This document shows, piece by piece, positions 1 to 49,195 of a DNA stretch of 64,000 bases. The stretch comes from Candidatus Bathyarchaeia archaeon. GTDB taxonomy: Archaea; Thermoproteota; Bathyarchaeia; 40CM-2-53-6. A model generated the notes under the pieces. That model saw nothing but the letters and a program-made list of their open reading frames with translations. It was not told where the DNA came from and did not search any database. The position numbers and the translations under genes were made by a program. Every line of letters begins with the position of its first letter. Position 1 is the stretch's first letter. The stretch is taken from assembly GCA_049513715.1 (NCBI GenBank), contig JBEKVV010000006.1, positions 1 through 64,000 on the forward strand. The letters run 5' to 3'.

Positions 1-653
1 TGGCGTATGCGCGTGTCGTTGCGTCGCATATGCGATCGAATCTCACGGTACATAGCTTTAATTTCCGTTGCCTTTGCCAAATTCTGCTTCTTCATCTGTC
101 CATCTGAGTCTGCAATGGTCAGATTGTTGAGATTTCGGTCAATGGCAATTAGGCCGCGAGGTTGAATTGGTTCAACCTCCTTCGCGTAGGAGATGCTCAA
201 CTGTTCCTCCGTTAATGTGACGGAGCGGATTTCGATGTTCGGTTCAAGGAGAACGCGTAGCACATGCGCGTTCAACGGGATCGATAACGGTTGCTTAGGC
301 TTGAATGGCAGCAAGAGCGCCTCTTCCTTTGTTTTGATTTTGAAGCCATAGCATGTTATCAGCTGCGGTCGCTGTGCGTAAGGTTCCTTTATTTCCGGAT
401 TCTTCCTACTGGCTTTACGATAGTTTCCCAAGATACCGGTGGCCTTGCTGATTGCGCAGAGTTTGTAGTAGCTCATGGCATCGTAGGTTGCAAGTTGATT
501 GTAAGCTTTCATGGAGAGTGACTTGAGGCTGGTCACATTCTCCGCAAGCCCAATCCGTACGCAGTCGTTAAGCATTTGGCGGAACTGCTCAAGCATCTGG
601 AGAATCTCGGGCCCGGGCGTGTAGTGCTGTTGAACTGCTTTGACCGCCCGCAT
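1..653 (-). CDS. tnpB: TnpB/Cas12f-like RNA-guided nuclease of IS200/IS605-type element, N-terminal ~217 aa (runs off window start)
   Basis: Hand translation from ATG at 653: MRAVKAVQQHYTPGPEILQMLEQFRQMLNDCVRIG...YYKLCAISKATGILGNYRK...RGLIAIDRNLNNLTIADSDG...; the IAIDRN segment fits RuvC-I. Frame stays open to the window edge; not in the ORF track. Confidence 0.8.
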   Translation of the reverse strand, partial: MRAVKAVQQHYTPGPEILQMLEQFRQMLNDCVRIGLAENVTSLKSLSMKAYNQLATYDAMSYYKLCAISKATGILGNYRKASRKNPEIKEPYAQRPQLITCYGFKIKTKEEALLLPFKPKQPLSIPLNAHVLRVLLEPNIEIRSVTLTEEQLSISYAKEVEPIQPRGLIAIDRNLNNLTIADSDGQMKKQNLAKATEIKAMYREIRSHMRRNDTRIR

Positions 654-817
654 GACTTAGCCTCTACCTTCCGGTACTTTTAGGCAGGAGAGGTCAGTGA
701 AAGCAATGAGCCGACAAGTTAACAGAGGTAACAAACGCAATAGACCATTCGTTCATTTCCCTTTTATCTCCCCAAAGCCAGCCAACTGGAATTATTACCT
801 CATGGAAGGTTCGGCAA

Positions 818-1486
818 TTGGTCTTTTGTTTTCAGTGCGGAACGCAGCTTTCACCGAATGACCATGCCTGCCCTAAGTGCGGGGCAGTGATCCCGGTAGC
901 CTCATCAAATCCGACGCCCGGCGTTGACGAAGTCATCTCTGAAAACAAACCGGGACCAACCGTGCAAGTCAACTCTAGGATCCCCCTCGTCGAAGGCGAG
1001 GAACTACTTTGGCACCGGGGTTCCACGAAAGGGTTTCTGCACAAGGAGGTTGTGATGGAAGAGGGGGTCACCAACAAGCGTCTCGTGAAGTACGATGTGG
1101 AGAACAAGCGAATCATAGCCCAGTTGGGAATCAATCACCGGCCAGAGGTTGTGGTTATGAATATTCACCGTGTGAATGACTCATTGGGAGGCGGCGTCTT
1201 CCTTACACCCAGAATGTTCGGTCTTGGTGGCCTTGGCGGCTTTGGCGTCTACGGCGGCCCCAGGCGGGGTAACATCAAAGTCTTCGGCGATGTCTCCTTC
1301 ATGAACGAGGGAAAAGTGGTTCTAAGCTTTGAAAACGTCCAGGCGCCTCAAGGCTTGAGAATGCTAGTGGAATCGCTCAAGCGACAGTCTGGTTTCGCTG
1401 GCCCAGGAAACCGAAGGCCTTTGATGGCCAGGCGACCCTTCAGGGGCCAACCCCAAAACCCGCAAGCTAAGTCCAGTTCGCCATAG
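818..1486 (+). CDS. N-terminal zinc-ribbon domain hypothetical protein
   Basis: CFQCG...CPKCG at N-terminus, 222 aa, Gly-rich insert. Confidence 0.75.
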   Translation: MVFCFQCGTQLSPNDHACPKCGAVIPVASSNPTPGVDEVISENKPGPTVQVNSRIPLVEGEELLWHRGSTKGFLHKEVVMEEGVTNKRLVKYDVENKRIIAQLGINHRPEVVVMNIHRVNDSLGGGVFLTPRMFGLGGLGGFGVYGGPRRGNIKVFGDVSFMNEGKVVLSFENVQAPQGLRMLVESLKRQSGFAGPGNRRPLMARRPFRGQPQNPQAKSSSP

Positions 1487-1567
1487 GGAACACAAAGCTC
1501 CGAAGATCCAATGCAAGATGACATCCCGTCCCCAAAAACGGAAGCGTTAGCGCATGCTCTCCGTGTG

Positions 1568-1748
1568 TCCCACACCTGTGAGTGAGTATCCCACACCCTA
1601 ACAAGGGGATGGGTTTGAGACACTTATGAGAGGATGTCAGCCACCCTCACGAGGGGTGGGACTCCCCCAAGGCACACACACGAAAAGCTGCCAGAATTGA
1701 CGGTTCAATTTTGGATGCTCGCATTATTAGACCCGCACACACATGAAA
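1568..1748 (+). repeat. Dispersed repeat family A, long copy (hairpin modules plus ~60-bp unit)
   Basis: Aligns by eye over ~180 bp with 55069-55249, e.g. CACCCTCACGAGGGGTG, CCCCAAGGCACACACACGAAAAGC, GACGGTTCAATTTTGGATGCTCGCA. Confidence 0.9.
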
Positions 1749-1990
1749 CCATCGAGGACTACGATAAATCCGAGCTTCGTGTTCGCGATATGTTCAGACT
1801 TTGTCCATCAAGGCTCCGATTTTATCTTCGTCAAACTCTTGGTTAACGATCTTCGTGAGGCGCATATTCAATTGGGCGCCTTTATCGCCTAATAGAGTCC
1901 AATCCGATTCTCCCACAGCCCAACCCGCATCTAGGCTTAGATTCCATCAGGGTTCACGACCGTAGCTCACCATTGTATTCTTTCTGTGGT

Positions 1991-2025
1991 GTATAACATA
2001 TGCTAGACATGATTTCTCTGGGACG
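1991..2025 (-). repeat. Short dispersed repeat C, copy 1
   Basis: Reverse complement CGTCCCAGAGAAATCATGTCTAGCATATGTTATAC matches 9379-9413 CGTCCCATGAAAAATATGCCTAGCATATGTTATAC; partial match ATGATTTCTCTGGG at 5017-5030. Confidence 0.65.
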
Positions 2026-2165
2026 CCCTCGTTTTTGCTGGGGATGCGGCCTTCTGTGGTTGGTGATTATGGATTGTAGCTGCTTTGGCTTCACAAAGTC
2101 GTATTTGTGGTAGGGGCGCATTCAGACCGTTGTTAGTTTTGTATTGACTGTGTTTCCAGCAGCGT

Positions 2166-2360
2166 TCATTTGTTAGCTCCAGACTTTGCTATCTTTACGA
2201 GCAGTCTGCCTAAACGTTTGTGTCCCGCAGTCATATACCATTTCAACCACCATGCCGCGATAGTCTCAACAGCCGCCTTGTCTAAGGTTGCGAGGTCTTT
2301 TTCCGCTTCCTCCGCGGCAGCGTCCATCTTAGCTAGAACATCGGTTTTCTCTTCGCTCAT
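2166..2360 (-). CDS. Small hypothetical protein (64 aa)
   Basis: ATG start, helical protein-like composition, WWLKWYMTAGHKRLGR motif. Confidence 0.7.
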   Translation of the reverse strand: MSEEKTDVLAKMDAAAEEAEKDLATLDKAAVETIAAWWLKWYMTAGHKRLGRLLVKIAKSGANK

Positions 2361-2453
2361 AGCTATTCCCTGCCTAACGTAGCATCAGCGCAGCTTCTAG
2401 AGGTTTACTCAACTCGCATGCTAGCTGCTATATGCGTTAACCTCGATTCGATC

Positions 2454-2503
2454 TCAGAGATGGGGCAGGGGATTTCAGCCCCAATTTGCCCATACATCTA
2501 AGG
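2454..2503 (+). repeat. Dispersed motif B, copy 1
   Basis: TCAGAGATGGGGCAGGGGATTTCAGCCCCAATTTGCCCATACATCTAAGG. Confidence 0.75.
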
Positions 2504-2557
2504 CCAGACTTGCTTGCTGTTCTCTCTTCTCTTGAATTTTACAGTTCACTTTGCTTG

Positions 2558-2782
2558 ATGTCTGAGCCTGAGGTCACCTTGCGCCTTATTCGATTGAATC
2601 AGCCAAGGCAGCAATTGTGGTTCAAAATGGATTGCCCGTATTGCGGATTGATGCTGCTCGGTCAAGACGGGTTTCCTCTGTACCGTTGTGACAGCTGCAA
2701 CTGCTGGTTTGAACGGCAAATTGACGGACCAATCGTTCCACTGAAACTCGACGCATTCGTGAGAATTACGGGAGCGAAGTAA
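2558..2782 (+). CDS. Small zinc-ribbon (CPxCG-type) protein
   Basis: CPYCG...CDSC; start placed at ATG of MSEPEV within track ORF 2486..2782. Confidence 0.5.
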   Translation: MSEPEVTLRLIRLNQPRQQLWFKMDCPYCGLMLLGQDGFPLYRCDSCNCWFERQIDGPIVPLKLDAFVRITGAK

Positions 2783-2792
2783 CCGAAATGAA

Positions 2793-3104
2793 GTTGAGGA
2801 CAAGTCGACGCAATGCCCCAAGTGCCAGAAACAGTTGATTTGGCTGAGTCACAGTACACGCTGGGAGAAAATCCCAATTCACGAATTCAACTTCTCTTGG
2901 GGATCGTGCAACCGCAAATATCAATTCAAAGACAACCAACTCACCGAAAAACAACCTCAACGAAACCTAGCAGCTGAAACAACCGGAATCCACAACGCCC
3001 AACTCAAACATGCGGTTAGTCGGCGCTGTTCACAATGCGGCGGACCCATCATGAACGGATCCGGGTTGCTCACTTTGAGGTGTGAATGGTGTCACCAAGA
3101 ATAG
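2793..3104 (+). pseudogene. Degenerate tandem zinc-ribbon micro-ORF(s)
   Basis: Frame of track ORF 2835..3104 extends upstream through QCPKCQ with no canonical start; WGSC sits where a CxxC is expected; second pair CSQCG...CEWC at the C-terminus. Confidence 0.35.
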
Positions 3105-3252
3105 ACTTCGATCATAACCATTGCCGCCTTCCCAACTACAGCCACTTGGACAGACAGAGGTTGAAGTCCACCCTGTACCGAAATACGATAATGGGATACA
3201 AAACTACCCTACTGCCCCCCACCCCACGCCTAACAATAATAGAAAGGAAAAT

Positions 3253-3300
3253 TGGTGCGGGGAGGGGATTTTGGCTCCAATTTACCGGTCCATATAGGCG
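3253..3300 (+). repeat. Dispersed motif B, copy 2 (tRNA 3'-end-like on minus strand)
   Basis: TGGTGCGGGGAGGGGATTTTGGCTCCAATTTACCGGTCCATATAGGCG. Confidence 0.8.
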
Positions 3301-3461
3301 CTCAAGGTTGCGCAGAAGATGTCCGTTCAATGAAGGAAGATCCGAGGGGGATTCTGTATCTCTGAAACCTATTGCCGGTTTGTTTCGTCCTGCTGCCTAA
3401 GGCTTAATGTCTGCCACTGATGTCGCCATCAAGAGTTTCAACTTTGTAATCCCTTTTTAGT

Positions 3462-4097
3462 TCAGTCAAAGCGGTTTTTCTTTGCGTGCCAGAGATACAA
3501 TGATGCGATGGAGCAGTAGGGATGCCAATTGGTCGCAATCTCCTCAATCTTTTCAGCCTTGGGAAGTTTACGTAAGGAATAGACCTTTTGAATTGCCAAT
3601 TGGATTCCGAGGTCATCGGCGGGAAGAACATCTGGTCGCCCCAGCACGAAGAGGAGAAACATTTGCGCTGTCCATGGACCTATACCTTTTACTTCGTCGA
3701 GTATCCGAATTACTTCATCATCGGACTTCCTCCTGAGAGGGTTAAGATCCAATTGACCGTTAACGACCCGTGAACTCAGGTCTTTGAGGTAGCGGATCTT
3801 TTGTGGGGAAACGCCTGCTTTCCTCAGTTTCGAAGCAGTAAGGTTGTTTAGTGCTTGTGCGTCGATAACTTCAGTTTGGAGCAGAGCCTTTAGTTTGCCA
3901 AAGATTGCCCGCGCGGATTGCCCACTTAACTGTTGGGAAATTATTGCTTCGACCAGTGACTCGAACGGATCACCATCGACTGTGAACTTAATCGGTCCAT
4001 GTTTCTTTACCAGTTCACGAATCTTAGGATCGACGCGGGAGATGTGTCTCGCGCCTAATTGAAATGTCTGCGGCTTGCTAATGTTAGGGAAGGTCAT
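3462..4097 (-). CDS. alkA: DNA-3-methyladenine glycosylase II (HhH-GPD family)
   Basis: DPFESLVEAIISQQLS, VKGIGPWTAQMFL, DVLPADDLG motifs. Confidence 0.9.
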   Translation of the reverse strand: MTFPNISKPQTFQLGARHISRVDPKIRELVKKHGPIKFTVDGDPFESLVEAIISQQLSGQSARAIFGKLKALLQTEVIDAQALNNLTASKLRKAGVSPQKIRYLKDLSSRVVNGQLDLNPLRRKSDDEVIRILDEVKGIGPWTAQMFLLFVLGRPDVLPADDLGIQLAIQKVYSLRKLPKAEKIEEIATNWHPYCSIASLYLWHAKKNRFD

Positions 4098-4216
4098 AGG
4101 CGACTCTCAGCAGTTTCCAAACTTCAGACAAAAGAATTCAATGAAAACAGTATCCTGCGATGTGGCATGAGTGGCCTGACAACACAAGCGTGCCCGTGGA
4201 CACCGGGCTCGTATCA

Positions 4217-4247
4217 TGTGTGTGCGCACCACTAGATCACACACACC
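4217..4247 (+). repeat. Family A short palindromic copy
   Basis: TGTGTGTGCGCACCACTAGATCACACACACC; nearly identical to the reverse complement of 57188-57217. Confidence 0.8.
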
Positions 4248-4299
4248 ACCGGATTATGTGACTGAGAGGAACAGATTGAATGCGATGCTTCACTATTCA

Positions 4300-4794
4300 C
4301 TATTTTTCCAATCTGTATAGTGCATAAACCGCTGCAGTCATCCCTAAGAAAAAGTATAACACTGCTATTTCTATTGGCAAAGTTCCACCTATCATGTAAA
4401 ACGGCGAATGATAATAACTCCACAATCGATTTCCAGTTCCATAAAGCTCCCACACGATATCTGCCACGAAACCAATAGCACCAAGTTCTAAGATTACAGG
4501 ATTTCTAAGTTTAACAAGTCCAGCTATTCCGATGACCCCAAACAGAACCATCAGAATTGTACTCGTCCAGACATTTCTGCCTAATTGACTTGCTAGAAAA
4601 GTGGAAAAAATAATGACCAAGATCACAATTGAAACCACTGGGACACTATGTTTGAAGGCATCGGCTTTTCCGCCAGAGATAGTCCACTCAATAACGTGCT
4701 GAACCTGATTTCGTTTTCCCATTATACATTTCTCCTCAGTTGGTGGGATAGTAATTTCCTGCACCACATTCATGTCATATAAGAATGACATCAA
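4300..4794 (-). CDS. Hypothetical membrane protein, probably chimeric N-terminus
   Basis: About 4 hydrophobic segments in the C-terminal two thirds; start uncertain. Confidence 0.55.
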   Translation of the reverse strand: MMSFLYDMNVVQEITIPPTEEKCIMGKRNQVQHVIEWTISGGKADAFKHSVPVVSIVILVIIFSTFLASQLGRNVWTSTILMVLFGVIGIAGLVKLRNPVILELGAIGFVADIVWELYGTGNRLWSYYHSPFYMIGGTLPIEIAVLYFFLGMTAAVYALYRLEK

Positions 4795-4840
4795 TCACTA
4801 TTGTGAACTAGTGGCGTCTTATCGTCGTTTGAGCGGGACT

Positions 4841-4945
4841 TGTTCCTGTGTGTGTGGGGGTCTACTGGTGTGAGCGGTGGAATTTGAACCGTCATTTTGA
4901 GTGTGTGTGGCAGTGACGGTGCGGACAACGAAATTTGAACTGACG
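4841..4945 (-). repeat. Family A, two degenerate units in inverted orientation
   Basis: Reverse complement ...GTTCAAATTTCGTTGTCCGCACC...CCACACACACTCAAAATGACGGTTCAAATTCCACCGCTCACACCAGTAGACCCCCACACACACAGGAA. Confidence 0.75.
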
Positions 4946-4963
4946 TTGCTCGTTGCATTGCTA

Positions 4964-5009
4964 GCTTATATGAACCGGTAAATTGGTGCTGAAATCCCCT
5001 CCCCCGCAC
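4964..5009 (-). repeat. Dispersed motif B, copy 3 (inverted)
   Basis: Plus strand GCTTATATGAACCGGTAAATTGGTGCTGAAATCCCCTCCCCCGCAC. Confidence 0.8.
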
Positions 5010-5069
5010 GAGTTAGATGATTTCTCTGGGTCCCAAGGATTCACCTAGGTGGGTTCCAGTTCCGGCGGC

Positions 5070-5100
5070 CGCACCACTAGACCCACACACACGAAAACGT
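5070..5100 (+). repeat. Family A short copy
   Basis: CGCACCACTAGACCCACACACACGAAAACG; core identical to 55223-55245. Confidence 0.85.
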
Positions 5101-5149
5101 TTGACAAAAAACTGAGATTTCCCGTCATTACCGGTCCTAGGCTGTGTGC

Positions 5150-5302
5150 CTAGTATCTTCGGTGCTTCTGGAAGCAGTCTCTACAGTAGACCGGTTTACC
5201 CGATGTTGGCACAAACGGTACTTCTGTATCTGCGCCGCAGTCGGAGCATTTGACTTTCGTCATTTGCCTCGGGGCACCAGAGCGTCTATTCTCATATCCC
5301 AT
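5150..5302 (-). CDS. CxxC-x17-CxxC domain small protein (50 aa)
   Basis: Hand translation MGYENRRSGAPRQMTKVKCSDCGADTEVPFVPTSGKPVYCRDCFQKHRRY; below the ORF-track size cutoff. Confidence 0.9.
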   Translation of the reverse strand: MGYENRRSGAPRQMTKVKCSDCGADTEVPFVPTSGKPVYCRDCFQKHRRY

Positions 5303-5652
5303 TTCGTTTTCCACCGTCCCAATTTTCTAGTTATACGAAAGATAGTACTCGCCGCGATAATCGGTACGAGCTTGACGGCTCTCCCATCATCCACGCAGGT
5401 AAGATCTCCAGTATACTGCCTGCGCAATAGGCAAGACCACCATAAAAACTGATTCCGTGCTCATACCTTGTGACAATTGAAGATGGAAGATCAGAAGAAA
5501 AGCAAACGTGCCTCACTTCCTGGTTCGACATAGGATCGCTACTGCGTTTTCTTAGAGGTGGGTATGGTTCTTTGACGAAGTCTCAACGAAGTAAGAAAGG
5601 AAGGATTAAATGCGTATATGACAGCACGCCCGCAATTCGGTTGTAATCTAGC

Positions 5653-5979
5653 ATGCAGTTCTGCCCGAAATGTAGTCTGGCGCTCATTCCAATTAAGAAG
5701 GAAAAGATTGTTGTGCTAGCATGCCCCAAGTGCGGAGAAGAAACTAGACGGTCGGATCCGATAGTACAGAAACTCGAAACGGCCAAGGAATCCGTCGTGG
5801 TAATCGGTAAGGAAGATGAGAAGAACCTACAGATCCTCCCGAAAATGAAAGTTAGCTGCCAAAAATGTGGGCATGGAGAAGCCTTCTATTGGACGGTACA
5901 AACTCGCGGTGGCGATGAAGCCTCGACCCAGTTCTTCAGATGTACGAAATGCAGCCGAACATGGCGAGAGTACTCATGA
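5653..5979 (+). CDS. tfs: Transcription factor S (TFS / RpoM-like)
   Basis: MQFCPKC...CPKC N-terminal ribbon; C-terminal CQKC...QTRGGDE..TQFFRCTKC with the acidic DE pair retained. Confidence 0.92.
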   Translation: MQFCPKCSLALIPIKKEKIVVLACPKCGEETRRSDPIVQKLETAKESVVVIGKEDEKNLQILPKMKVSCQKCGHGEAFYWTVQTRGGDEASTQFFRCTKCSRTWREYS

Positions 5980-6383
5980 AATGACAACTTGAAACGGAGC
6001 CTTCGCACCTGTGGTCTGGTGCGGGTTTTTTTGTCCGAGTGATAATTGGCGAAAAAAAACCAATTCAGGTGACGATCGGCCTCTACTGTTTCAGGGATGA
6101 CTCAGGGGCTTTTGACTGGAAGCGTTTGGAGGGCAATTGATACGCTCGAACTTCTTTCTCAATGACGAAAGCGAACTGAATTGGAAACTGTTTCTGTGTG
6201 CGAACACAGCGAAGCCTAGACTTAGCAGGGGGCCCGAATAACAACCGATCTTGTAGTTCGAGAATACGTAGCCGCTGATTAGAGTGCTACTGAATGCCTC
6301 CCGCAACTGAGATGGTTACCGTCACGAAGACTTTCAAGGTGGACCTCTCTGACATAGGTTAATCTGAAAAAAGTGAAAACGAA

Positions 6384-7367
6384 ATGGCTGAGGACCTCAT
6401 TATCGAGACGAAAGGGCTTCGAAAAACATTCATTTCCAAAACGAGAAACGGCAAGAAAGAATTGGAAGCGGTCGGGGGCGTAGATCTTGCTGTCAAAAAG
6501 GGTGAAATCTTCGGTTTTCTCGGCCCCAACGGCGCTGGAAAATCAACAACACAGAGGATGCTGTCAACATTGCTACCCCCCACCGGCGGAGAAGCAAAGA
6601 TACTCGGCTATGACTTGGCAAAACAACAGGAACAGATAAGACAAAACATTGGATACGTTGGTCAGACAGGCGGAACTGATCCCGCCGCCACCGGGTTCGA
6701 GAATCTCATATTACAAGCGCAACTCTACGGTCTGGATATTCATACCGCAGGAAAATACGCCCGAGAATTCGTCGAGCGCTTTCAAATGGGATCATTCATC
6801 GAAAGACAGGCTTCGACCTATTCGGGCGGTCAAAAGCGCAGACTGGACGTTGCCCTTGGAATGATTCACCACCCAAAGTTGCTCCTCCTTGACGAACCAA
6901 CGTCCGGGCTTGACCCACAAAGCAGGGCCTATTTGTGGGACGAGCTCAAGAAGCTGAAAGCAGAAGGGATCACCATATTCCTGTCCACCCACAATATGGA
7001 CGAGGCGGACAAGTTGTGCGATACTATGGCGATAATAGACAACGGCAAAATCATAGTCAAGGGAACGCCAACTGAGTTAAAAAGCGCCATTGGCGCTGAC
7101 ACTGTAGTTTTTGGTTTTCACGACGGAAAGACTGCCAGCAGCGCGGAAAACTTGCTGGCAGAGAAAATCCGCGCAGAAAGAATCCAAACCACCAACAACC
7201 TCGTCCACCTGTCCATCAAAGATGGAGAAAGAAGGATGCCGGAACTGCTTAGGTTGCTCGACTCAAACAACTTGGAGGCACAAAACATTACGCTTTCTAG
7301 GCCGAGTCTCGACGATGTTTTCCTGAAGTATACGGGCCGCTCGCTCAGGGAGGACGATAACCAATGA
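6384..7367 (+). CDS. ABC transporter ATP-binding protein, DrrA-like
   Basis: GPNGAGKST Walker A, YSGGQ signature, LLLDEPT Walker B. Confidence 0.93.
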   Translation: MAEDLIIETKGLRKTFISKTRNGKKELEAVGGVDLAVKKGEIFGFLGPNGAGKSTTQRMLSTLLPPTGGEAKILGYDLAKQQEQIRQNIGYVGQTGGTDPAATGFENLILQAQLYGLDIHTAGKYAREFVERFQMGSFIERQASTYSGGQKRRLDVALGMIHHPKLLLLDEPTSGLDPQSRAYLWDELKKLKAEGITIFLSTHNMDEADKLCDTMAIIDNGKIIVKGTPTELKSAIGADTVVFGFHDGKTASSAENLLAEKIRAERIQTTNNLVHLSIKDGERRMPELLRLLDSNNLEAQNITLSRPSLDDVFLKYTGRSLREDDNQ

Positions 7368-8125
7368 GAATCCTACGCGATACGAAACTGATGTTCGTAA
7401 GAAACATGCAGCATACGCTCAGGAATCCGATTTTCATTTTGGTAAGCATGTTCCAACCGCTGCTGTATCTCTTTCTGTTCATGCCGCTGCTTGAAAACCT
7501 TGGAGGCGTGCCTGGTTTGCCCGTTGGAAAAACGGTGGAGACTTTCATACCGGGGCTTTTGGTAATGCTTGCGCTTTTCGGCTCTGCGTTTGTGGGATTC
7601 ACCCTCATCGATGAGCTCCGCACTGGAGTGATAGAAAGGTTCTTGGTCACTCCTGTCACACGATCCTCAATCCTGCTGGGCAGAGTTCTGAGGGATGCTT
7701 TCGTGCTCGTTACGCAATGCGTTCTAATCACATTTGTCGCGATTCCTTTCGGACTAAGCGTTAACGTTGTAGGATTCTTGCTCTCTCTGATTTTATATGG
7801 CCTGATCGGAATCACCATGGCTTCAATGTCGTACTCATTCGCGCTCATCTACAAGAGCGAGGACAATCTCGCTCCCACTCTGAACACCATAACTTTACCA
7901 ATTTCCCTTTTGTCAGGCATAATTCTTCCCCTTGTACTCGCCCCCATTTGGCTCCAAGATGTAGCTATGATTAATCCATTCTCTTATGCTGTAAACGCCT
8001 CCCGCGCATTATTCGCCGGAAATTTCTATAGTGTCGACATAATAGAAGGATTCGGCATCATTACTTTGCTCGCGATCGTCATGTTCTTGTGGTCACTAAG
8101 ATCGCTCAAGAAAATTGAGTCCTAA
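7364..8125 (+). CDS. ABC-2 type permease, DrrB-like
   Basis: Six hydrophobic segments, GVIERFLVTP, NPFSYAV; ATGA overlap with the ATPase. Confidence 0.92.
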   Translation: MRILRDTKLMFVRNMQHTLRNPIFILVSMFQPLLYLFLFMPLLENLGGVPGLPVGKTVETFIPGLLVMLALFGSAFVGFTLIDELRTGVIERFLVTPVTRSSILLGRVLRDAFVLVTQCVLITFVAIPFGLSVNVVGFLLSLILYGLIGITMASMSYSFALIYKSEDNLAPTLNTITLPISLLSGIILPLVLAPIWLQDVAMINPFSYAVNASRALFAGNFYSVDIIEGFGIITLLAIVMFLWSLRSLKKIES

Positions 8126-8212
8126 CTGGAAAAAACGTTGCTGCTTGCTTTGTCTTGGTACTGTGCCAAGTATATCCAACATCGTGACCTGTATCCTTCA
8201 GCGTTCTGGCGT

Positions 8213-8262
8213 TCAGAGGTGGGTCAGGGGATTTTGGCCCCAATTTACCGGTACATAAAAGC
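8213..8262 (+). repeat. Dispersed motif B, copy 4
   Basis: TCAGAGGTGGGTCAGGGGATTTTGGCCCCAATTTACCGGTACATAAAAGC. Confidence 0.8.
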
Positions 8263-8449
8263 TGCCCATGGGATCAAGAGAACCGAGCCTGCTCTTGGAA
8301 AGACTGAGGGAAAATCCTCACCAAAGACGACAAACCGAAGATAGAGCGAGAACGGACTCGGAGAATAAAACCTGCGAGAATCGTAGTTCTTTCGTCTGGC
8401 AAAATTGAAAGTTTAATATACTAAAATTGGAGCTATTGGGGCGATTGTT

Positions 8450-8776
8450 ATGTCGTATCTTGTGACTGGAGAATTCATCGAGAACTCTGTCCCTCCTGAA
8501 GCATTTCCACAGGTCTGGGAAACAGTAATTCGCCCGAGCCTTGAATCGCTGGCCAAAATGGGGGACGATAAGAAACTTACCGGCGGCATCTTCGCTGGTC
8601 AACGAGCAGGCGCGTTCGTAATTGAGGTTCAATCAAACGAAGAACTCGACACCACGCTAGGCAGTCTTCCCTTCTGGGGGTTGATTAAGTGGAATGTGAC
8701 ACCACTGCAAACGATTCGCGGTGCGATCGAACGAGACCGAAAAGCAGTGGAACGCATGAAAGCCTCCAAACGTTGA
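8450..8776 (+). CDS. Muconolactone isomerase-like / DUF3303-type dimeric alpha-beta barrel protein
   Basis: GGIFAGQRAGAFVIEVQSNEELDTTLGSLPFWGLIKWNVTPL pattern. Confidence 0.65.
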   Translation: MSYLVTGEFIENSVPPEAFPQVWETVIRPSLESLAKMGDDKKLTGGIFAGQRAGAFVIEVQSNEELDTTLGSLPFWGLIKWNVTPLQTIRGAIERDRKAVERMKASKR

Positions 8777-9013
8777 ACGCAACCTACGAGCAAATTACAT
8801 TGATTGTTCGATAGGGGTCGGGCCCACTCAAAACCTACTATTAACTTCGGTACTTGTGCGGTTTGGAACGTTGGCTTTGATTCAGCTCCAATTCAACCAC
8901 TTTTGGGGGTTGGGAACCACTGGGTGGAATAGTGGAACTTGCGCCACTCTCCCTTAAGTATAACTTGGGCCCCTGTAAGGTTAGGAAAGATATCCGTAGA
9001 GGTGAAATGAAAA

Positions 9014-9097
9014 ATGGCAACAAAACGCAAGGTCAAGATGCGAGTTAACGCAGACGCTCCAAGATCCGAGAAGGGCAGCAGCGAATACGTAGCATAA
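9014..9097 (+). CDS. Candidate 27-aa small peptide
   Basis: GAGGTGA Shine-Dalgarno ~8 nt before ATG; MATKRKVKMRVNADAPRSEKGSSEYVA; TTAAGTATAA upstream and T-tracts downstream. Confidence 0.5.
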   Translation: MATKRKVKMRVNADAPRSEKGSSEYVA

Positions 9098-9378
9098 GCC
9101 CAACGAGGCTAGATGATTGGACGGATTCTTTTCCGAACCGTCCCAACGACCCTTTTTTCAGGCAAACTCATAATTTTCTCTCCGACTTGTTCCCGAGCTC
9201 TCTCATCCGTTGAGCCTCCCAATGACCAAGAGCGACTGTCAGAATTCTTTCGGCGAGATCTCTTAGTTTCACTTCCTCACACCCTTGACCGACACTTCTC
9301 CACCCCGAGTAAGGATGAGTAACGTGTTTTCCCCACAAAACTATACCACATATTGAAACCCACACCCAAGCACGCGTC

Positions 9379-9413
9379 CGTCCCATGAAAAATATGCCTA
9401 GCATATGTTATAC
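9379..9413 (+). repeat. Short dispersed repeat C, copy 2
   Basis: Matches the reverse complement of 1991-2025. Confidence 0.65.
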
Positions 9414-9473
9414 GCGAATACATGGTGCGGGGAGTTAGGTTTAGACCCACGTTTGCACCCTCATAATTCGTAT

Positions 9474-9524
9474 TCAGAGATGGGGTGGGGGATTTTGACC
9501 CCAATTTACCTGTACATATAGGCG
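9474..9524 (+). repeat. Dispersed motif B, copy 5
   Basis: TCAGAGATGGGGTGGGGGATTTTGACCCCAATTTACCTGTACATATAGGCG. Confidence 0.8.
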
Positions 9525-9701
9525 GGCGGCGTGCGGCCTGAAAGTTAACAGAATCCCCCCACCCCCGCTCCAACAAACTGGGCCCCATCATACCTAACGC
9601 CTAAACCCTGCTCGGGTTTTTCCTAAGAACCAGTCTCCACTAAGGCGGTCCAGGTCAAAGCACCTATACCGCGGAGGACTCGCTACGTACGCGAAGGCCC
9701 G

Positions 9702-12431
9702 TTGACGGAGACCACCGCGCCGCAGGAGTTGAATTGGCATGCGATGGAACCCGCAGCCGTCCTCTCCACCCTAAACTCGGACCCAAAACTAGGCCTTTCA
9801 GACGCCGAGGCCAAAGCGCGGCTGGCAATTTACGGGCCCAACGAGATTGAAGAAACAAGAAAAATCTCACCTTGGAAGCTCCTCCTAGGCCAATTCAAAG
9901 AAACCCTAGTCCTAATCCTAATTGTGGCAGCCTTAGTTTCCATAGCTATAGGCGAAGCCATAGACTCAGCAGTAATTCTCGCCATCGTAATCGCATCCGC
10001 TGGCTTAGGCTTTTACCAGGAATACAGGGCGGAACAATCCCTAGCACTTCTCAAGAAACTGGCAGCCCCAACCGCAGCAACAATCCGAGACGGGCAAGAA
10101 CTCCTACTGCCCACAAGGGAACTCGTTCCAGGCGACCTCATACTCCTCGAATCAGGGAACAAGGTCCCCGCTGATACGCGAATAATCGAGCAGATGAATC
10201 TCCAGGTTGATGAGGCAACGCTCACCGGCGAATCCGTTCCCGTCAACAAATCACCCGAACAAGTCCCCACCGAAACCCCGTTACCAGAACGAAGCAACAT
10301 CGCATACTCCGGGACAGTGGTGACGTACGGACGCGGAAAAGCTGTTGCCTACGCAACCGGCATGCGAACAGAATTCGGCAAAATTGCTCGCCTCATACAA
10401 TCCAACGAGAAGGAGAAAACACCGCTAGAGGAACGAATGGACGAGCTTGGCAACTGGATGATCAAGGTCCTCCTTGTAACCGTCGCCGGAGTCACACTCC
10501 TCGGCATTTTTCGCGGCAACGGACTAATCGACATGTTCCTGTGGGGTGTGAGCCTAGCCGTGGCTGCAGTACCCGAAGCTCTTCCAGCGGTCGTTACCGG
10601 AGCCCTAGCGGTTGGCGTATACCGAATGGCTCGGAGAAACGCCATAATCCGGCACCTGCCTGCCACAGAAACACTCGGCTCAACCTCGTTCATATGCTCC
10701 GACAAAACCGGCACCCTGACGAAAGGAGAAATGACCGTCCGCAGAATCTTCACGGGCGAGCAAACCTACGATATCACAGGCGTCGGCTACGAGCCAAAAG
10801 GGGAGTTCAATCCCGCTCCCACAGGCACAGATCGAGAGTTAGCCAAGTTCACCTGCATCTGCAGTGTACTATGTAACGACTCAAGACTAACGAAACAGAA
10901 CGGCTCATGGCGGGTTATTGGCAACCCAACCGAAGGCGCCCTAGTTGTGGCTGCAACCAAAGCAGGCATAGACGTCGAGGCGGGTCGGGCTGATTCTCCA
11001 CGAGTCGCGGAGATTCCTTTCACATCAGAAAGAAAAATGATGACTACCGTCCACAAAACGAAACAAGGCCAGTTTCTCCTCGCAACTAAAGGAGCCCCTG
11101 AACTGGTTCTTGACAAATGCACCAAAGTCGGCGGCCCAACATCAAGCACAACGTTAGACCACGCTTCGAAGCAACAAATTCTGAAAGCTAACGAGAACTT
11201 TGCGGCAGAGGGCTTTCGGGTACTCGCTGTAAGCTACAAGCTACTCAATCAACTCCCACAAGTATTGGATGAAGCAGTAGAACGTGAGATGTCCCTCCTC
11301 GGCCTCTTCGCCATGATTGACCCGCCCCGAGAAGAAGCAGCAGAGGCCGTCAAGCTCTGCGGTAAAGCAGGCATACGGGTCGTCATGATAACTGGGGACC
11401 AGAAACTCACAGCCACATGGGTCGCGAAGGAACTCGGAATTTTGAGAGAGGGCGACCTAGCACTCACCGGGGTGGAACTGGGGAAACTAAACGACGACGA
11501 GTTCTTGCAAATGATTGAGAAGGTTTCCGTGTACTCCCGCACGTCGCCTGAGCATAAGATGCGCATTGTCGCCGCTCTGAAGAAGAGGGGGCACATTGTG
11601 GCAATGACGGGCGACGGTATCAATGACGCCCCAGCTCTGAAGAAGTCAGATATCGGCATATCCATGGGCGTAACTGGCACCGACGTGACGAAAGAAGCCT
11701 CGGACATGATTCTGGCCGACGACAACTTCGCAACCATAGTCGACGCTGTCTACGAAGGCAGGGGCATTTACGAGAACATCCGGAAATACTTGACGTACCT
11801 GATTTCAGCGAACATTGGCGAAATCCTCATCATGGCTCTCGCAGGCCTCATCGCGCTCCCACTCCCGCTCTTAGCGAAACACTTGCTCTTCGTAAACTTG
11901 GCCACAGACGGTCTGCCCGCTCTCGCCTTGGGAACAGATCCACCAGACCCACTCCTGATGGAGAAGCCGCCGAGAAACCCGAAAGAAACTATATTCCAGA
12001 CAGTGCGTGGTTGGTTAGCTGGAATCGCTCTCTTACTGCTAATCGTCGCGACCGTTGCGTTTGCGTATGGGCTACTCAGCTACGGGTGGGCGTTCAGCAA
12101 TCCAGTCCAATTGGCTGAACTTAAAGCACGAAGCATGGTCTTCGCTGTAATCGTATTCTTCGAAATCTTCTACGCGTTCAGCTGCCGGTCTTTCGACCGA
12201 ACCTTCATCTCCCTAGGACCACTAGGTAACAAATCACTCGTTCTAGTGGTCGTTGGCCAAGCAATTATCATGCCGTTCCTCTTCCAAATTCCAATTCTGG
12301 CAAATCTCTTCAGCATCACAGCGCTCTCCCCAATTGAATGGTTAATTGTACTCGCCCTGGGCTCTTTGGGCTTCGTTGTCAGCGAAATAGCCAAAGTCCT
12401 TCGTCACAAAATCCATCGAGTTTCCAATTGA
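9702..12431 (+). CDS. P-type ATPase, type IIA (Ca2+-transporting-like)
   Basis: TGES, VPEAL, DKTGT, KGAPE, TGDGINDAPAL motifs. Confidence 0.95.
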   Translation: MTETTAPQELNWHAMEPAAVLSTLNSDPKLGLSDAEAKARLAIYGPNEIEETRKISPWKLLLGQFKETLVLILIVAALVSIAIGEAIDSAVILAIVIASAGLGFYQEYRAEQSLALLKKLAAPTAATIRDGQELLLPTRELVPGDLILLESGNKVPADTRIIEQMNLQVDEATLTGESVPVNKSPEQVPTETPLPERSNIAYSGTVVTYGRGKAVAYATGMRTEFGKIARLIQSNEKEKTPLEERMDELGNWMIKVLLVTVAGVTLLGIFRGNGLIDMFLWGVSLAVAAVPEALPAVVTGALAVGVYRMARRNAIIRHLPATETLGSTSFICSDKTGTLTKGEMTVRRIFTGEQTYDITGVGYEPKGEFNPAPTGTDRELAKFTCICSVLCNDSRLTKQNGSWRVIGNPTEGALVVAATKAGIDVEAGRADSPRVAEIPFTSERKMMTTVHKTKQGQFLLATKGAPELVLDKCTKVGGPTSSTTLDHASKQQILKANENFAAEGFRVLAVSYKLLNQLPQVLDEAVEREMSLLGLFAMIDPPREEAAEAVKLCGKAGIRVVMITGDQKLTATWVAKELGILREGDLALTGVELGKLNDDEFLQMIEKVSVYSRTSPEHKMRIVAALKKRGHIVAMTGDGINDAPALKKSDIGISMGVTGTDVTKEASDMILADDNFATIVDAVYEGRGIYENIRKYLTYLISANIGEILIMALAGLIALPLPLLAKHLLFVNLATDGLPALALGTDPPDPLLMEKPPRNPKETIFQTVRGWLAGIALLLLIVATVAFAYGLLSYGWAFSNPVQLAELKARSMVFAVIVFFEIFYAFSCRSFDRTFISLGPLGNKSLVLVVVGQAIIMPFLFQIPILANLFSITALSPIEWLIVLALGSLGFVVSEIAKVLRHKIHRVSN

Positions 12432-39481: not shown

Positions 39482-40403
39482 GTTCAGGCAATTAATTCTT
39501 TCGAACAGTCTATCAACGCTAGGTCTGGTCATCGTAATCATATCGGTCACATTTGCCGTGCTATTCAGTGTTTTTGGTAGAGGAATCACACCTTACGACC
39601 CGTATGCCCTCAACCTCCAACAATCCAATCTACCCCCAAACGCGTCCCATTTCTTTGGCACGGACTTTCAAGGTAGAGACATATTTTCCAGAGTAATCGC
39701 AGCCCTGCCGGTCGACCTCGGCATACCGATTGCAATCGTCCTACTCTCGTCCGTGTTGGGCATATTTCTCGGGATGGCCGCTGGTTACTTAGGAGGCGCA
39801 GTCGACGAGGTCATCATGAGAGTTACGGACCTGTTCATGGCTTTTCCAACCATAATAATGGTACTGGCTGTCGCGGCGACACTTGGTTCGGGCCTCGTGA
39901 ATGCCACGCTGTCATTCGTGTTCGTTTGGTGGCCCCCCTACGTCAGATTAGTTAGAGGTGGCGTGCTCGAGGTAGCTGCCGAAGATTACATCGCCATCTC
40001 GAAAGCATTGAATTCATCTTTTCCCTACATAATGGTGAAAGGCATTCTTCCAAACATCCTGCCGGCAGTCCTGACCTACGCAACTCTTGATGTCGGAACC
40101 GCACTTCTTGAAGTCTCTATCCTTGGCTTCCTCGGTGTTGGAATTCCGCCCGGGACTCCTGAGCTCGGTGTGATGGTGGGGTCAATCAGCTACAATTTGT
40201 ATAGTTACCCATGGGAGGCTATATTTCCAGCCTTGGTGACAATGGTTCTTGCAGTTGGTTTCAGTTTCATGGGAGAGGGCGCAAGAGAAGCTTCTGACGT
40301 GAAGGTTAGGCCCTACATTCTCTTTAGAGGTAAAGCGTTCAAACAGAAGGCGAAAGCACCCCAAAAAGAGCCGATATCAGTTACCCAGCCGGGTGCGACC
40401 TGA
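39456..40403 (+). CDS. dppC: Peptide ABC permease DppC/OppC-like
   Basis: HFFGTDFQGRD, LGFLGVG..P.TPELG. Confidence 0.9.
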   Translation: MLKVAQSLKFRQLILSNSLSTLGLVIVIISVTFAVLFSVFGRGITPYDPYALNLQQSNLPPNASHFFGTDFQGRDIFSRVIAALPVDLGIPIAIVLLSSVLGIFLGMAAGYLGGAVDEVIMRVTDLFMAFPTIIMVLAVAATLGSGLVNATLSFVFVWWPPYVRLVRGGVLEVAAEDYIAISKALNSSFPYIMVKGILPNILPAVLTYATLDVGTALLEVSILGFLGVGIPPGTPELGVMVGSISYNLYSYPWEAIFPALVTMVLAVGFSFMGEGAREASDVKVRPYILFRGKAFKQKAKAPQKEPISVTQPGAT

Positions 40404-47623: not shown

Positions 47624-49195
47624 TTGGAAAAGAAACCACCGGTTTTCGTCAGGGAGGCAACGGGCCTCATTCGGGAAGTTGGTGCTTGGTCTTCCTTTAT
47701 GGCGGTGCTGGCACTTGTGACGGGAGGTGTTCCTGTCCTCTGGGTTGCTTTAATGTACGAGGCGCCGGGGGCAAATTGGCCGTTAGCCTTCTTGGTTGCC
47801 TACTTCCCAAGTCTCTTGATGGCCGGTTTGTTCACCTTAGTCGGAATCTCGATGCCAAGATCCGGAGGAGATTATGTCTTCACAACCCGAGGAGTCAATC
47901 CTTATGTTGGATTCGTTAACTACTGGGGAATCGCGGCGGCTTTCGTTATCAATGCAGGCATATTCTCATTCTACACGGGTAACTATGTTGGGTACGTGCT
48001 TGCAAGCCTAGGAGCTTTCTACAACAACCCCGGCATAGCTGCCTTAGGGTCGTCCCTGACTGAGCCGGTCCTTTCCTTTGTTTTGGCCACAGTGGTGTTA
48101 GTTATCTCATGCTTGCTCTCGATCATAAGGCCGCGAATTACTTGGGCGCTCGTTTTCTGGTCAGGAGTGATTTCGTTGATTGCTACCGTAATCATGTTCG
48201 TAGCGCTCGCGGGCATTGATGCCTCCACTTTTGCTGCCAGCTATAATTCGTTCATGGGTAATTCTACAGCATACGATGCCGTAATACAAACTGGAGGGAT
48301 TACTGCACCTCCTAATGCGATGCTGGCCACAGCAGCCGCGCTTCCAATTGTTTGGTTCTACTACGTTTGGTATAATCTCCCAACAACATGGAGCGGAGAA
48401 ATGAAGAATGTGAGAAGGTCTATGCCTATTGCAATTCTAGCTTCGCTGACCGCGATCGCGATCTTCTACGTGTTGCTCGTCCTAATTGTTACACATGCCT
48501 TTGGACAATCCTTCCTTGAGAATTGGGGCAGCCTTGCCGCAAATGGAAGTGAACCTGTTTCAGGCGTTGGAGGATTCATACCGTTCTTCGCACTTCTGGT
48601 CTACAAGAGCCCTGCACTTTTCGGTGTGATGTTCCTAGCTCTCTGGCTCCCTATCTTCTTTGAGTTCCCGCCGCTACTGATATCGCAGACTAGATACTTG
48701 TTCGCATGGGCTTTTGACAGAATTCTGCCAGATCGTGTAGCATCGGTGAACGAGAGGTTCCACACCCCCGTGGTCGCCACCGTACTTGTGACTATTGGGG
48801 CGATAGTTGCAGCTGGAATAATGGCCTTCGCAGCTGATTCGGGAGAGTTCGCAACGTTGAGCTTCACAATGTTCTCGTTTGGTTTCATAATCCCCGCTAT
48901 TGCCGCGATTCTATTTCCATTCAGGAAGAAACAGCTCTATGAAACCGCTTTTGTCGTGAAGAAGAAATTGGTGCTTCCCCTCATTAGCTGGCTAGGGATA
49001 GGATCGTTAGTCTACCTTACTTACTCAACGTACCTCTCCATTCAATCAGGGGGCCTGCCGATAGACAATGTCTCCATGACTATGTACGGTACAATCTACG
49101 GTCTCGGTGTAATCGTCCTGGTCGTAGGTTACCTCAGAAACAGGAGTAGAGGACTACCGTTAGGATTGGTCTTCGCAGAAATCCCGCCTGAATAA
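47624..49195 (+). CDS. APC family amino acid/polyamine permease
   Basis: FVREATGLIRE, MPRSGGDY, RYLFAWAFDRILP, terminal EIPPE. Confidence 0.92.
   Translation: MEKKPPVFVREATGLIREVGAWSSFMAVLALVTGGVPVLWVALMYEAPGANWPLAFLVAYFPSLLMAGLFTLVGISMPRSGGDYVFTTRGVNPYVGFVNYWGIAAAFVINAGIFSFYTGNYVGYVLASLGAFYNNPGIAALGSSLTEPVLSFVLATVVLVISCLLSIIRPRITWALVFWSGVISLIATVIMFVALAGIDASTFAASYNSFMGNSTAYDAVIQTGGITAPPNAMLATAAALPIVWFYYVWYNLPTTWSGEMKNVRRSMPIAILASLTAIAIFYVLLVLIVTHAFGQSFLENWGSLAANGSEPVSGVGGFIPFFALLVYKSPALFGVMFLALWLPIFFEFPPLLISQTRYLFAWAFDRILPDRVASVNERFHTPVVATVLVTIGAIVAAGIMAFAADSGEFATLSFTMFSFGFIIPAIAAILFPFRKKQLYETAFVVKKKLVLPLISWLGIGSLVYLTYSTYLSIQSGGLPIDNVSMTMYGTIYGLGVIVLVVGYLRNRSRGLPLGLVFAEIPPE

Follow-up and report, generated by a model that had tools for sequence, protein, structure and literature searches.

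Dispersed sites of a tRNA-Leu/Ser-targeting integrase element as likely joints between accessory blocks in a Bathyarchaeia genome

The first 64 kb of contig C6 in the assembly of a Candidatus Bathyarchaeia archaeon (GCA_049513715.1, contig JBEKVV010000006.1; 11 contigs, 2.79 Mb), referred to below as the window, contain a short repeated motif, B, which a reading of the sequence alone had reported in five intergenic copies within 7 kb, one of them inverted. Those copies, their positions and the inversion of copy 3 were confirmed; a degenerate pattern gave exactly five matches in the window against 0.00 in 100 shuffles, and all five do sit between credible genes. From comparison with the rest of the assembly, related genomes and metagenomes, we consider it likely, at a probability of roughly two in three, that B is the attachment (att) site family of a tyrosine-integrase element targeting tRNA-Leu and tRNA-Ser genes, and that the window copies are joints between accessory blocks inserted or exchanged in trans. 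Below, C1–C11 are contigs of this genome (G000), other G numbers are relatives' genomes, 'site' means a B copy, and strands of B copies are quoted in tRNA sense.

Each full copy consists of an element arm, a stem-loop and a tail. Copy 1 (2454..2502, minus strand), a predicted module-to-module joint, ends in the tail ATCTCTGA; it is followed by two small Cys-rich (Zn-ribbon-like) open reading frames (ORFs; 2558..3104, plus), in a block 76% identical to C1:633093-633658. Copy 2 (3253..3298, minus), an attR-type scar, carries a tRNA-Leu 3' tail including CCA, matching host tRNA 3' ends at C5:220136 and C4:128295, and after it come an AlkA-like HhH-GPD DNA glycosylase (3462..4097, minus; PF00730) and the hydrophobic ORF164 (4300..4794, minus), which is duplicated on C5 and has no Pfam or NCBIfam match. 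Copy 3 (4965..5013, plus), the sole inverted copy among clustered sites, has a full tRNA-Leu tail ending CGA. Beyond it lie a treble-clef Zn-finger ORF (minus) and a transcription factor S (TFS) paralogue (plus) at 5150..5979, a degenerate sixth half-copy of B (6091..6118, minus) with loop, stem and tail but no arm, and a DrrA/DrrB-like ATP-binding cassette (ABC) exporter pair (6384..8125, plus). Copy 4 (8213..8261, minus), with a ATCTCTGA-type tail, and copy 5 (9474..9522, minus), with a ATCTCTGA tail, enclose a muconolactone-isomerase-like small protein (8450..8776, plus; PF02426). Copy 5 is the last site before the conserved backbone, which starts with a P-type ATPase (9702..12431, plus; ~70% DNA identity in relatives) and forms the island edge. 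That copies 2 and 3 end like a tRNA-Leu, as first proposed, is correct, with the reservation that copy 2 is one base short and copy 3 ends CGA rather than CCA.

In assembled contigs of sequencing runs containing this DNA, the window is supported at even depth and copies 2 and 5 are bridged; copy 4 is covered by overlapping contig pieces, and most joints correspond to other genomic copies of the repeat. In two of four runs, a minor variant connects a tRNA-tailed site with the end of the TFS gene. Peat or wetland runs are among the sources of this DNA, which, with homologues labelled Bathyarchaeia, points to a peat-dwelling member of that group; no RNA run was listed among them. ARAGORN called no tRNA anywhere in the window, and an Rfam scan of positions 1-12,000 gave nothing credible. 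The motif is not confined to these 7 kb: a profile built from the five window copies finds 50 sites and one tRNA end in the assembly (E up to 0.2), on 10 of the 11 contigs, clustered in accessory regions and at contig ends. Window copies 1–5 match the 49-nt genome consensus at 42, 36, 36, 45 and 45 positions, respectively.

Read in tRNA sense, the consensus runs from an arm with the palindrome TACCGGTA through GGGG, a 7-nt loop and CCCC to the tail, and the stem-loop between arm and tail resembles a tRNA T-arm; the loop is variable at its first three bases and nearly invariant at its last four. Tails fall into three classes: ATCTCTGA at 35 of the 50 sites, a tRNA-Leu/Ser 3' end at 10, and others at 5. 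Window copies 1, 4 and 5 belong to the first, non-tRNA class, whose tail is unable to pair with a tRNA acceptor stem, and copies 2 and 3 to the second. A structured non-coding RNA or attC hairpin was rejected, folding being no better than in shuffled sequences (mean z -0.28, 2 of 50 below -2), as were transposon terminal inverted repeats or casposon ends, since the sites are direct rather than paired inverted repeats (no search for Cas1 was made).

The source of the motif lies on another contig. Searching the assembly with the arm alone gave 41 matches, 40 in the B configuration and one, on C5, inverted and directly following a tRNA CCA. This anchor tRNA (C5:220,116-220,320) has exactly the 3' end that the sequence-only reading had predicted a host tRNA would carry, and related Leu/Ser tRNA ends match 10 sites. 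Behind it lie an ORF of 174 amino acids (ORF174) and a 319-amino-acid tyrosine recombinase (Int), the two overlapping at ATGA; int is intact, starts ~570 bp past the tRNA end, and encodes the sole intact full-length integrase of its type in the assembly. Fourteen co-oriented B sites extend over 60 kb beyond Int, and the last bears the exact tRNA tail.

This arrangement recurs in other genomes. Among six orthologue loci in relatives, five have the order tRNA, inverted arm, ORF174, Int, and the sixth is cut by a contig end; nine of nine loci from a genome collection show the same layout, five of them apparently identical to the relatives' loci. Metagenomes contributed 80 loci, or 76 after removal of our own contig and three with a cut ORF, many being near-duplicates and thus not independent. 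A T-arm and Leu/Ser-type 3' end lie just upstream in 74 of the 76, with the inverted arm after the CCA; of the other two, one is too short and the other keeps tail and arm but is truncated at the T-arm. In all 74 loci with room for it, Int comes next. The autonomous element is built as tRNA (CCA), inverted arm with TATA box, ORF174, Int, cargo, and arm/stem-loop/tRNA tail. Since the arm follows the CCA of the integrase-element tRNA, copies 2 and 3 are attR-type scars. The earlier proposal of att-like scars left by repeated integration thus holds for the tRNA-Leu origin and the link to a tyrosine integrase, but only these two window copies are scars of tRNA duplication.

The consensus after the CCA, WTTTACYRGTA, leads into a TATA-box-like AT-rich run, and the left arm thus overlaps the likely promoter of the ORF174-int operon. 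Int keeps the catalytic residues R160, K188 (or K184), H263-x-x-R266 and Y298, and has Asp in place of His/Trp at motif III (Asp289); Glu163 and Asp289 are invariant in six sequences. ORF174 has 250 relatives in a protein search, almost none named, and none was found in viral contigs. Its predicted model (pLDDT 77, pTM 0.40) comprises two short N-terminal helices, a 45-residue helix and a C-terminal winged helix, the last with structural matches at Z up to 8.7, many of them tied; an N-terminal ribbon-helix-helix suggested by pattern was not confirmed by Foldseek, VIA-align or Atlas. ORF174 is predicted to bind the palindromic arms as an accessory factor and to regulate the operon.

The anchor tRNA gene spans 205 nt and apparently needs removal of four introns. 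It is most consistent with an intron-rich tRNA-Leu(CAG), an assignment based on its acceptor stem, on A as the discriminator base and on a scan with guided intron removal that gave Leu(CAG) in 2,476 of 2,821 ARAGORN calls (first 4,000 candidates; intervals chosen by hand), and which these data support without proving, unguided calls being inconsistent. Rfam was unable to model this tRNA. Most tRNA genes at element loci likewise defeat ARAGORN, which without introns called only two tRNA-Ser(GCT) in 60 loci and with one intron made 20 calls in 58 loci, of inconsistent isotype.

Paired ends locate the crossover. Complete attL/attR pairs bound 28.7 kb at G003:C2, where both arms carry the palindrome variant TACTAGTA, 5.5 kb at genome-collection locus L067 and 60 kb on our own C5; on C3, an attL/attR pair at a tRNA-Ser flanks a 5.4-kb block without an integrase. 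No such pair could be assigned inside the window. Right ends of the Ser type, and some of the Leu type, combine a left stem from the element (GGGG or GGTG) with a right stem from the tRNA (CCCA), so that GGGG faces CCCA where the tRNA itself pairs GTGGG with CCCAC, and the first loop bases also differ from those of the tRNA. Because these ends keep the element's left stem and first loop bases together with the tRNA's right stem, the crossover must fall within the T-loop. We take this to be the T-loop class of preferred tRNA integration positions. Calculated for an unintegrated circle, the distances of the two palindrome centres from the centre of the loop would be 15.5 and 26.5 bp, values that differ by one helical turn. 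Three preferred positions of tRNA integration, the present one among them, are described in the available text of a published survey (PMC8371274). Simple tandem re-integration at the tRNA was rejected, our own genome having no full arm–tRNA tail–arm junction; such junctions occur in G002:C96 and, in degenerate form, in G015:C43.

Flanking sequences suggest that the sites act as joints. Comparing 51 sites (the 50 plus the tRNA-side junction), we found in-register flank sharing on the arm side in 7 pairs and on the tail side in 11, and on both sides in none of the 18. Copy 3 illustrates the pattern: its arm-side flank (4217-5000, 784 bp) is 97.6% identical to C5:175026-175801, the flank of site C5:175034, and its tail-side flank (4964-5092, 129 bp) is 93% identical to C5:182517-182645, the flank of site C5:182617, so that copy 3 has the form of the junction expected from closing the block between these two C5 sites. 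One 2.3-kb block is terminated by a tRNA-tailed site on C1 and by a ATCTCTGA-type site on C5, and the tail-side flank of copy 5 is common to three further sites. Neighbouring sites within 30 kb are co-oriented in 35 of 37 pairs, both exceptions involving copy 3, and spacings between sites define blocks of 0.4-24 kb.

The ATCTCTGA tail itself looks like the left end of modules that lack an integrase. Were it so, insertion into a tRNA-like target should create two junctions, tRNA body with module tail and module arm with tRNA tail, and G002:C16 has such a pair: at 39,756 a ATCTCTGA tail adjoins a 3'-half fragment of tRNA-Leu, and at 47,832, a distance of 8.1 kb, stands an arm bearing the displaced tRNA tail; the interval contains no tyrosine recombinase. 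The target, which resembles a tRNA fragment beside a different integrase at 7,812 on the same contig, is a spare fragment, so that no essential tRNA was lost. A second candidate, G021:C124, was rejected for want of a tRNA body.

Integrase-less modules would accordingly share the right arm of the autonomous element and have a left end, tailed with ATCTCTGA, that cannot rebuild a tRNA, and they would therefore be tolerated only in spare sites such as an old attR or a tRNA fragment. Stacking in such sites would generate co-oriented arm–loop–ATCTCTGA joints closed by a tRNA-tailed site, with copies 1, 4 and 5 as putative module-to-module joints and copies 2 and 3 as the presumed tRNA-tailed ends. 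Extended to the genus, the idea becomes a gene-stacking system in which modules with redesigned ends dock only on spare att sites and on each other and are excised and reshuffled in trans by transient Int/ORF174; this larger claim we regard as tentative, and hold to be somewhat short of an even chance.

Several observations weigh against this account. The tRNA-to-ATCTCTGA junction is a single case in 59 genomes, and the 4-bp stem is intact in only 34 of the 50 sites. No integrase or co-oriented tRNA end was found on the window's contig, so that integration would have acted in trans or the array has been rearranged; likewise the arm of copy 5 faces the conserved backbone, with the P-type ATPase ~180 bp away, so that the array's entry point has been lost or rearranged, and no tRNA was seen upstream of the backbone ATPase in three relatives, so that the island's original anchor was not found. 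The C3 pair is uncertain, its right flank resembling another tRNA-Ser. Loop sequences differ between presumed partners, and recombination would therefore have to tolerate a mismatched overlap. At the Int locus, whose depth equals that of its neighbours, assembled contigs of four runs contain no clear excision, circle or empty-site joint (such contigs drop rare variants).

Other points concern what bounds the modules. Duplicated segments in island regions end within 45 bp of a B site in 13 of 215 cases against 4.7 expected (p 0.001), an excess that speaks for B, though in a test inflated by alignments that run into the motif itself; they end at sites of a second repeat family, C, in 14 against 3.3 expected, a stronger excess. 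Family C, in which a tRNA-like 3' end leads into an AC-rich run, lies at 1695-1743, 4217-4246, 4849-4897 and 5051-5092 in the window; it has 77 pattern matches in the genome with alternating orientations, bounds several modules and often abuts B arms. C sites form the ends of the TFS block (5069-5987) and of the ORF164 block (4238-4854) in several relatives, and the homology that alkA shows to G015 runs from 3455 to 4138, with both ends away from B; that of the ABC block to G004 begins at 6121, next to the half-copy at 6091-6118. The exchange of flanks supports a role of B as a joint, as first suggested, but its role as the boundary of the named modules of an accreting island does not extend to the TFS, ORF164 and alkA blocks, whose ends in relatives lie elsewhere. 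Copy 3 itself was probably inverted as a passenger of a segment (4217..5092) that includes ORF164 and is bounded by C copies.

Finally, sites and integrase do not coincide. Of 22 other genomes in the genus, 13 match an exact-style pattern for B, as does 1 of 38 more distant ones, and its reversed control has no match; the ATCTCTG tail occurs on arms in 14 of the 22, preceded by variable bases; Int orthologues (63-66% identity, with one partial at 51%) were found in 5 of the 22, and not in the near-complete, site-bearing G013, G014 and G018. The tRNA-ORF174-Int unit also occurs at locus L065, in a metagenome-assembled genome labelled Nitrososphaerales, which suggests either a range beyond Bathyarchaeia or mis-binning.

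A rival explanation is that all B copies are dead attR scars, the ATCTCTGA tail being the frozen flank of one ancient off-target insertion that was multiplied passively, with blocks moved by C-family sites, insertion sequence (IS) elements or homologous recombination between repeats. The lack of Int in most site-bearing genomes, the C sites that bound window modules and abut B arms, the failure to see excision and the apparent passage of copy 3 as a passenger are all as this would have it. Passive copying should keep both flanks of a site, yet none of the 18 flank-sharing pairs does so; the tail octamer keeps its sequence in 14 genomes, with variable bases ahead of it; and the reciprocal junction pair in G002 and the strongly uniform orientation also speak against scars. 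We therefore judge this explanation unlikely, if the most serious of the competitors, and continue to favour an att-site family whose window copies mark trans-inserted or exchanged blocks.

It is improbable, to a greater degree, that the ATCTCTGA-tailed class is used by a different recombinase, or by Int with a second, tail-reading factor. Site presence does not track Int, the tail bears no similarity to the arm palindrome, and tyrosine recombinases other than Int occur in 18 of the 22 genus genomes, some of them at tRNA-Leu ends; yet among 34 tyrosine-recombinase loci inspected the arm palindrome stands behind a tRNA only for Int orthologues, and no other recombinase is common to all site-bearing genomes, none having been found in G018, G006, G007 and G011. 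That B is a promoter or regulator-binding element, a palindrome with a TATA-like box spread to control accessory genes, is very improbable: the arm is an inverted copy of the sequence holding the TATA box of the ORF174-int operon and a gene points away from it at four of the five window copies, but genome-wide (by simple ORF calls) ORFs point away from the arm at 24 of 49 sites and from the tail at 28 of 49, at distances of 9 to 574 bp with no mode where the sequence-only reading had asked for a fixed distance to transcription starts, and the tRNA tails, co-orientation and flank exchange would be left unexplained.

Taken as attachment sites, the B copies may be a variant of tRNA-att accretion that works like tycheposon islands and the accretion of cis-mobilizable elements (CIMEs). 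In the available text on the tycheposons of Prochlorococcus (bioRxiv 10.1101/2020.12.28.424599), tandem elements are separated by partial tRNAs, remnants are scattered through islands, and tRNA-targeting integrase elements are rarer than their islands. Tycheposon separators are there partial tRNA copies, whereas here 35 of 50 sites have a conserved non-tRNA tail and all have a palindromic arm; our host is archaeal, and no replication or packaging module turned up, although no search was aimed at them. For CIMEs and for integrative and conjugative or mobilizable elements (ICEs, IMEs), the accessible portion of a review (PMC5704250) describes integrase-less elements that keep attL/attR, and newcomers that enter a resident att to form tandems with chimeric joints. 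The 8.1-kb block of G002:C16 and our own 5.4-kb C3 block are of this kind, judged on tyrosine recombinases alone. A CIME is there a decayed element whose ends restore the target gene, by contrast with the majority class here, which has a left end unable to restore the tRNA, tens of copies and blocks of 0.4-24 kb.

As in other tRNA-targeting type II integrase elements, there are a matching host tRNA 3' end, an adjoining intact recombinase (on another contig than the window) and attL/attR pairs. For SNJ2 of haloarchaea, the sections seen of PMC5861418 describe an intact archaeal tyrosine integrase of type II, located at the 3' end of a tRNA and encoded in one operon with overlapping accessory genes, whose products, the coiled-coil Orf2 and the MarR-like winged-helix Orf3, both promote integration; the long helix and winged helix of the ORF174 predicted model echo the two together. 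The present element has one accessory gene rather than two, Leu/Ser tRNA targets, a T-loop crossover and a non-haloarchaeal host, and Int was rejected as an SNJ2-type integrase since it has Glu163 and Asp289 where the signature given in those sections is Gly/Ala at motif I and Ala/Val at motif III. Closest among the named proteins in the plasmid and phage records searched is the integrase of plasmid pC2A from Methanosarcina acetivorans (NC_002097; 40.5% identity over 98% of Int), which shares the HCxRHxFTT and LRGD motifs but whose record annotates no equivalent upstream gene; we found no paper on its att site or mechanism. An SSV-type suicidal integrase was rejected, int being intact and ~570 bp from the tRNA end.

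The likeness to integrons, archaeal ones included, is in layout only: in the available text of bioRxiv 10.1101/2022.02.06.479319, one tyrosine recombinase stands beside a co-oriented run of sites, site clusters occur without a recombinase and accessory genes lie between sites, and tandem co-oriented sites are also found here (35 of 37 pairs). The present sites derive from a tRNA T-arm, and modules are often multi-gene with genes facing both ways, in place of short ORFs in one orientation; flanking ORFs are unbiased and spacings reach 24 kb. IntI was rejected (TIGR02249, 42.5 bits against a cut-off of 265, partial; NF011946, 24.2 against 435), as were attC sites (RYYYAAC/GTTRRRY boxes in 0 of 50 sites) and archaeal XerA/dif (NF040815, 181.6 bits against 220; patchy presence in 5 of 22 genomes; 50 sites). 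A core XerA is not evident across the genus; G018 (98% complete, 5 contigs) has zero PF00589 matches and so no recognisable XerA.

We found neither this integrase group nor its sites described in the literature; the supplementary integrase lists of PMC8371274 or PMC6563490 might include members. For Bathyarchaeia-type archaea, which abound in anoxic peat and sediment, almost no gene-exchange machinery has been described, and B, as a mark of accessory-genome joints, offers a way to map islands where assemblies are fragmented. Should the ATCTCTGA-tailed class be active, an ordinary tRNA integrase would have been turned into a cassette-stacking platform without IntI or attC, integron-like in effect, independent in origin, and built on double-stranded, T-loop-derived sites with tolerance of a mismatched overlap; if it is inactive, what remains is a field of att scars that is dense but of a familiar kind. 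Int and ORF174, as a two-gene unit with short sites, should be amenable to work in a model host.

The TFS paralogue (5653-5979; TIGR01384) is accessory, with 66% DNA identity to a copy at C5:49091, and the block it forms with the treble-clef Zn-finger ORF, C-bounded in relatives, is 85-93% identical in G014, G007, G008 and G019. Window positions 1-727 hold a repeated IS-like element that is truncated by the start of the contig and shares 92-96% identity with copies at C4, C5 and C8 ends; its minus-strand reading we take to be IS200/IS605 TnpB-like. A separate 75-bp repeat with six genome copies (3177-3251) abuts the CCA of copy 2, and its copy at C4:145859 likewise follows a tRNA-Ser-like CCA end. 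Positions 9379-9470 and 1989-2011 hold a composite in which a T-loop-like piece is combined with a tRNA tail and with the sequence after the CCA of tRNA C1:124721, and this composite also trails four other B sites; at 9550-9578, a plus-strand fragment resembles the 3' end and flank of tRNA C9:7152, in the sense opposite to copy 5. A repeated 340-bp segment without a long ORF (8836-9178) has copies at C5:210934, C5:159641, C1:823637 and C7:40975, and two copies of it end next to B sites. A third att family is evident at C3:166057-181346 (locus L004), where a tRNA has a 480-amino-acid recombinase-like ORF behind it and a matching right end at a distance of 15 kb, and copies of that right end often lie just upstream of B arms.

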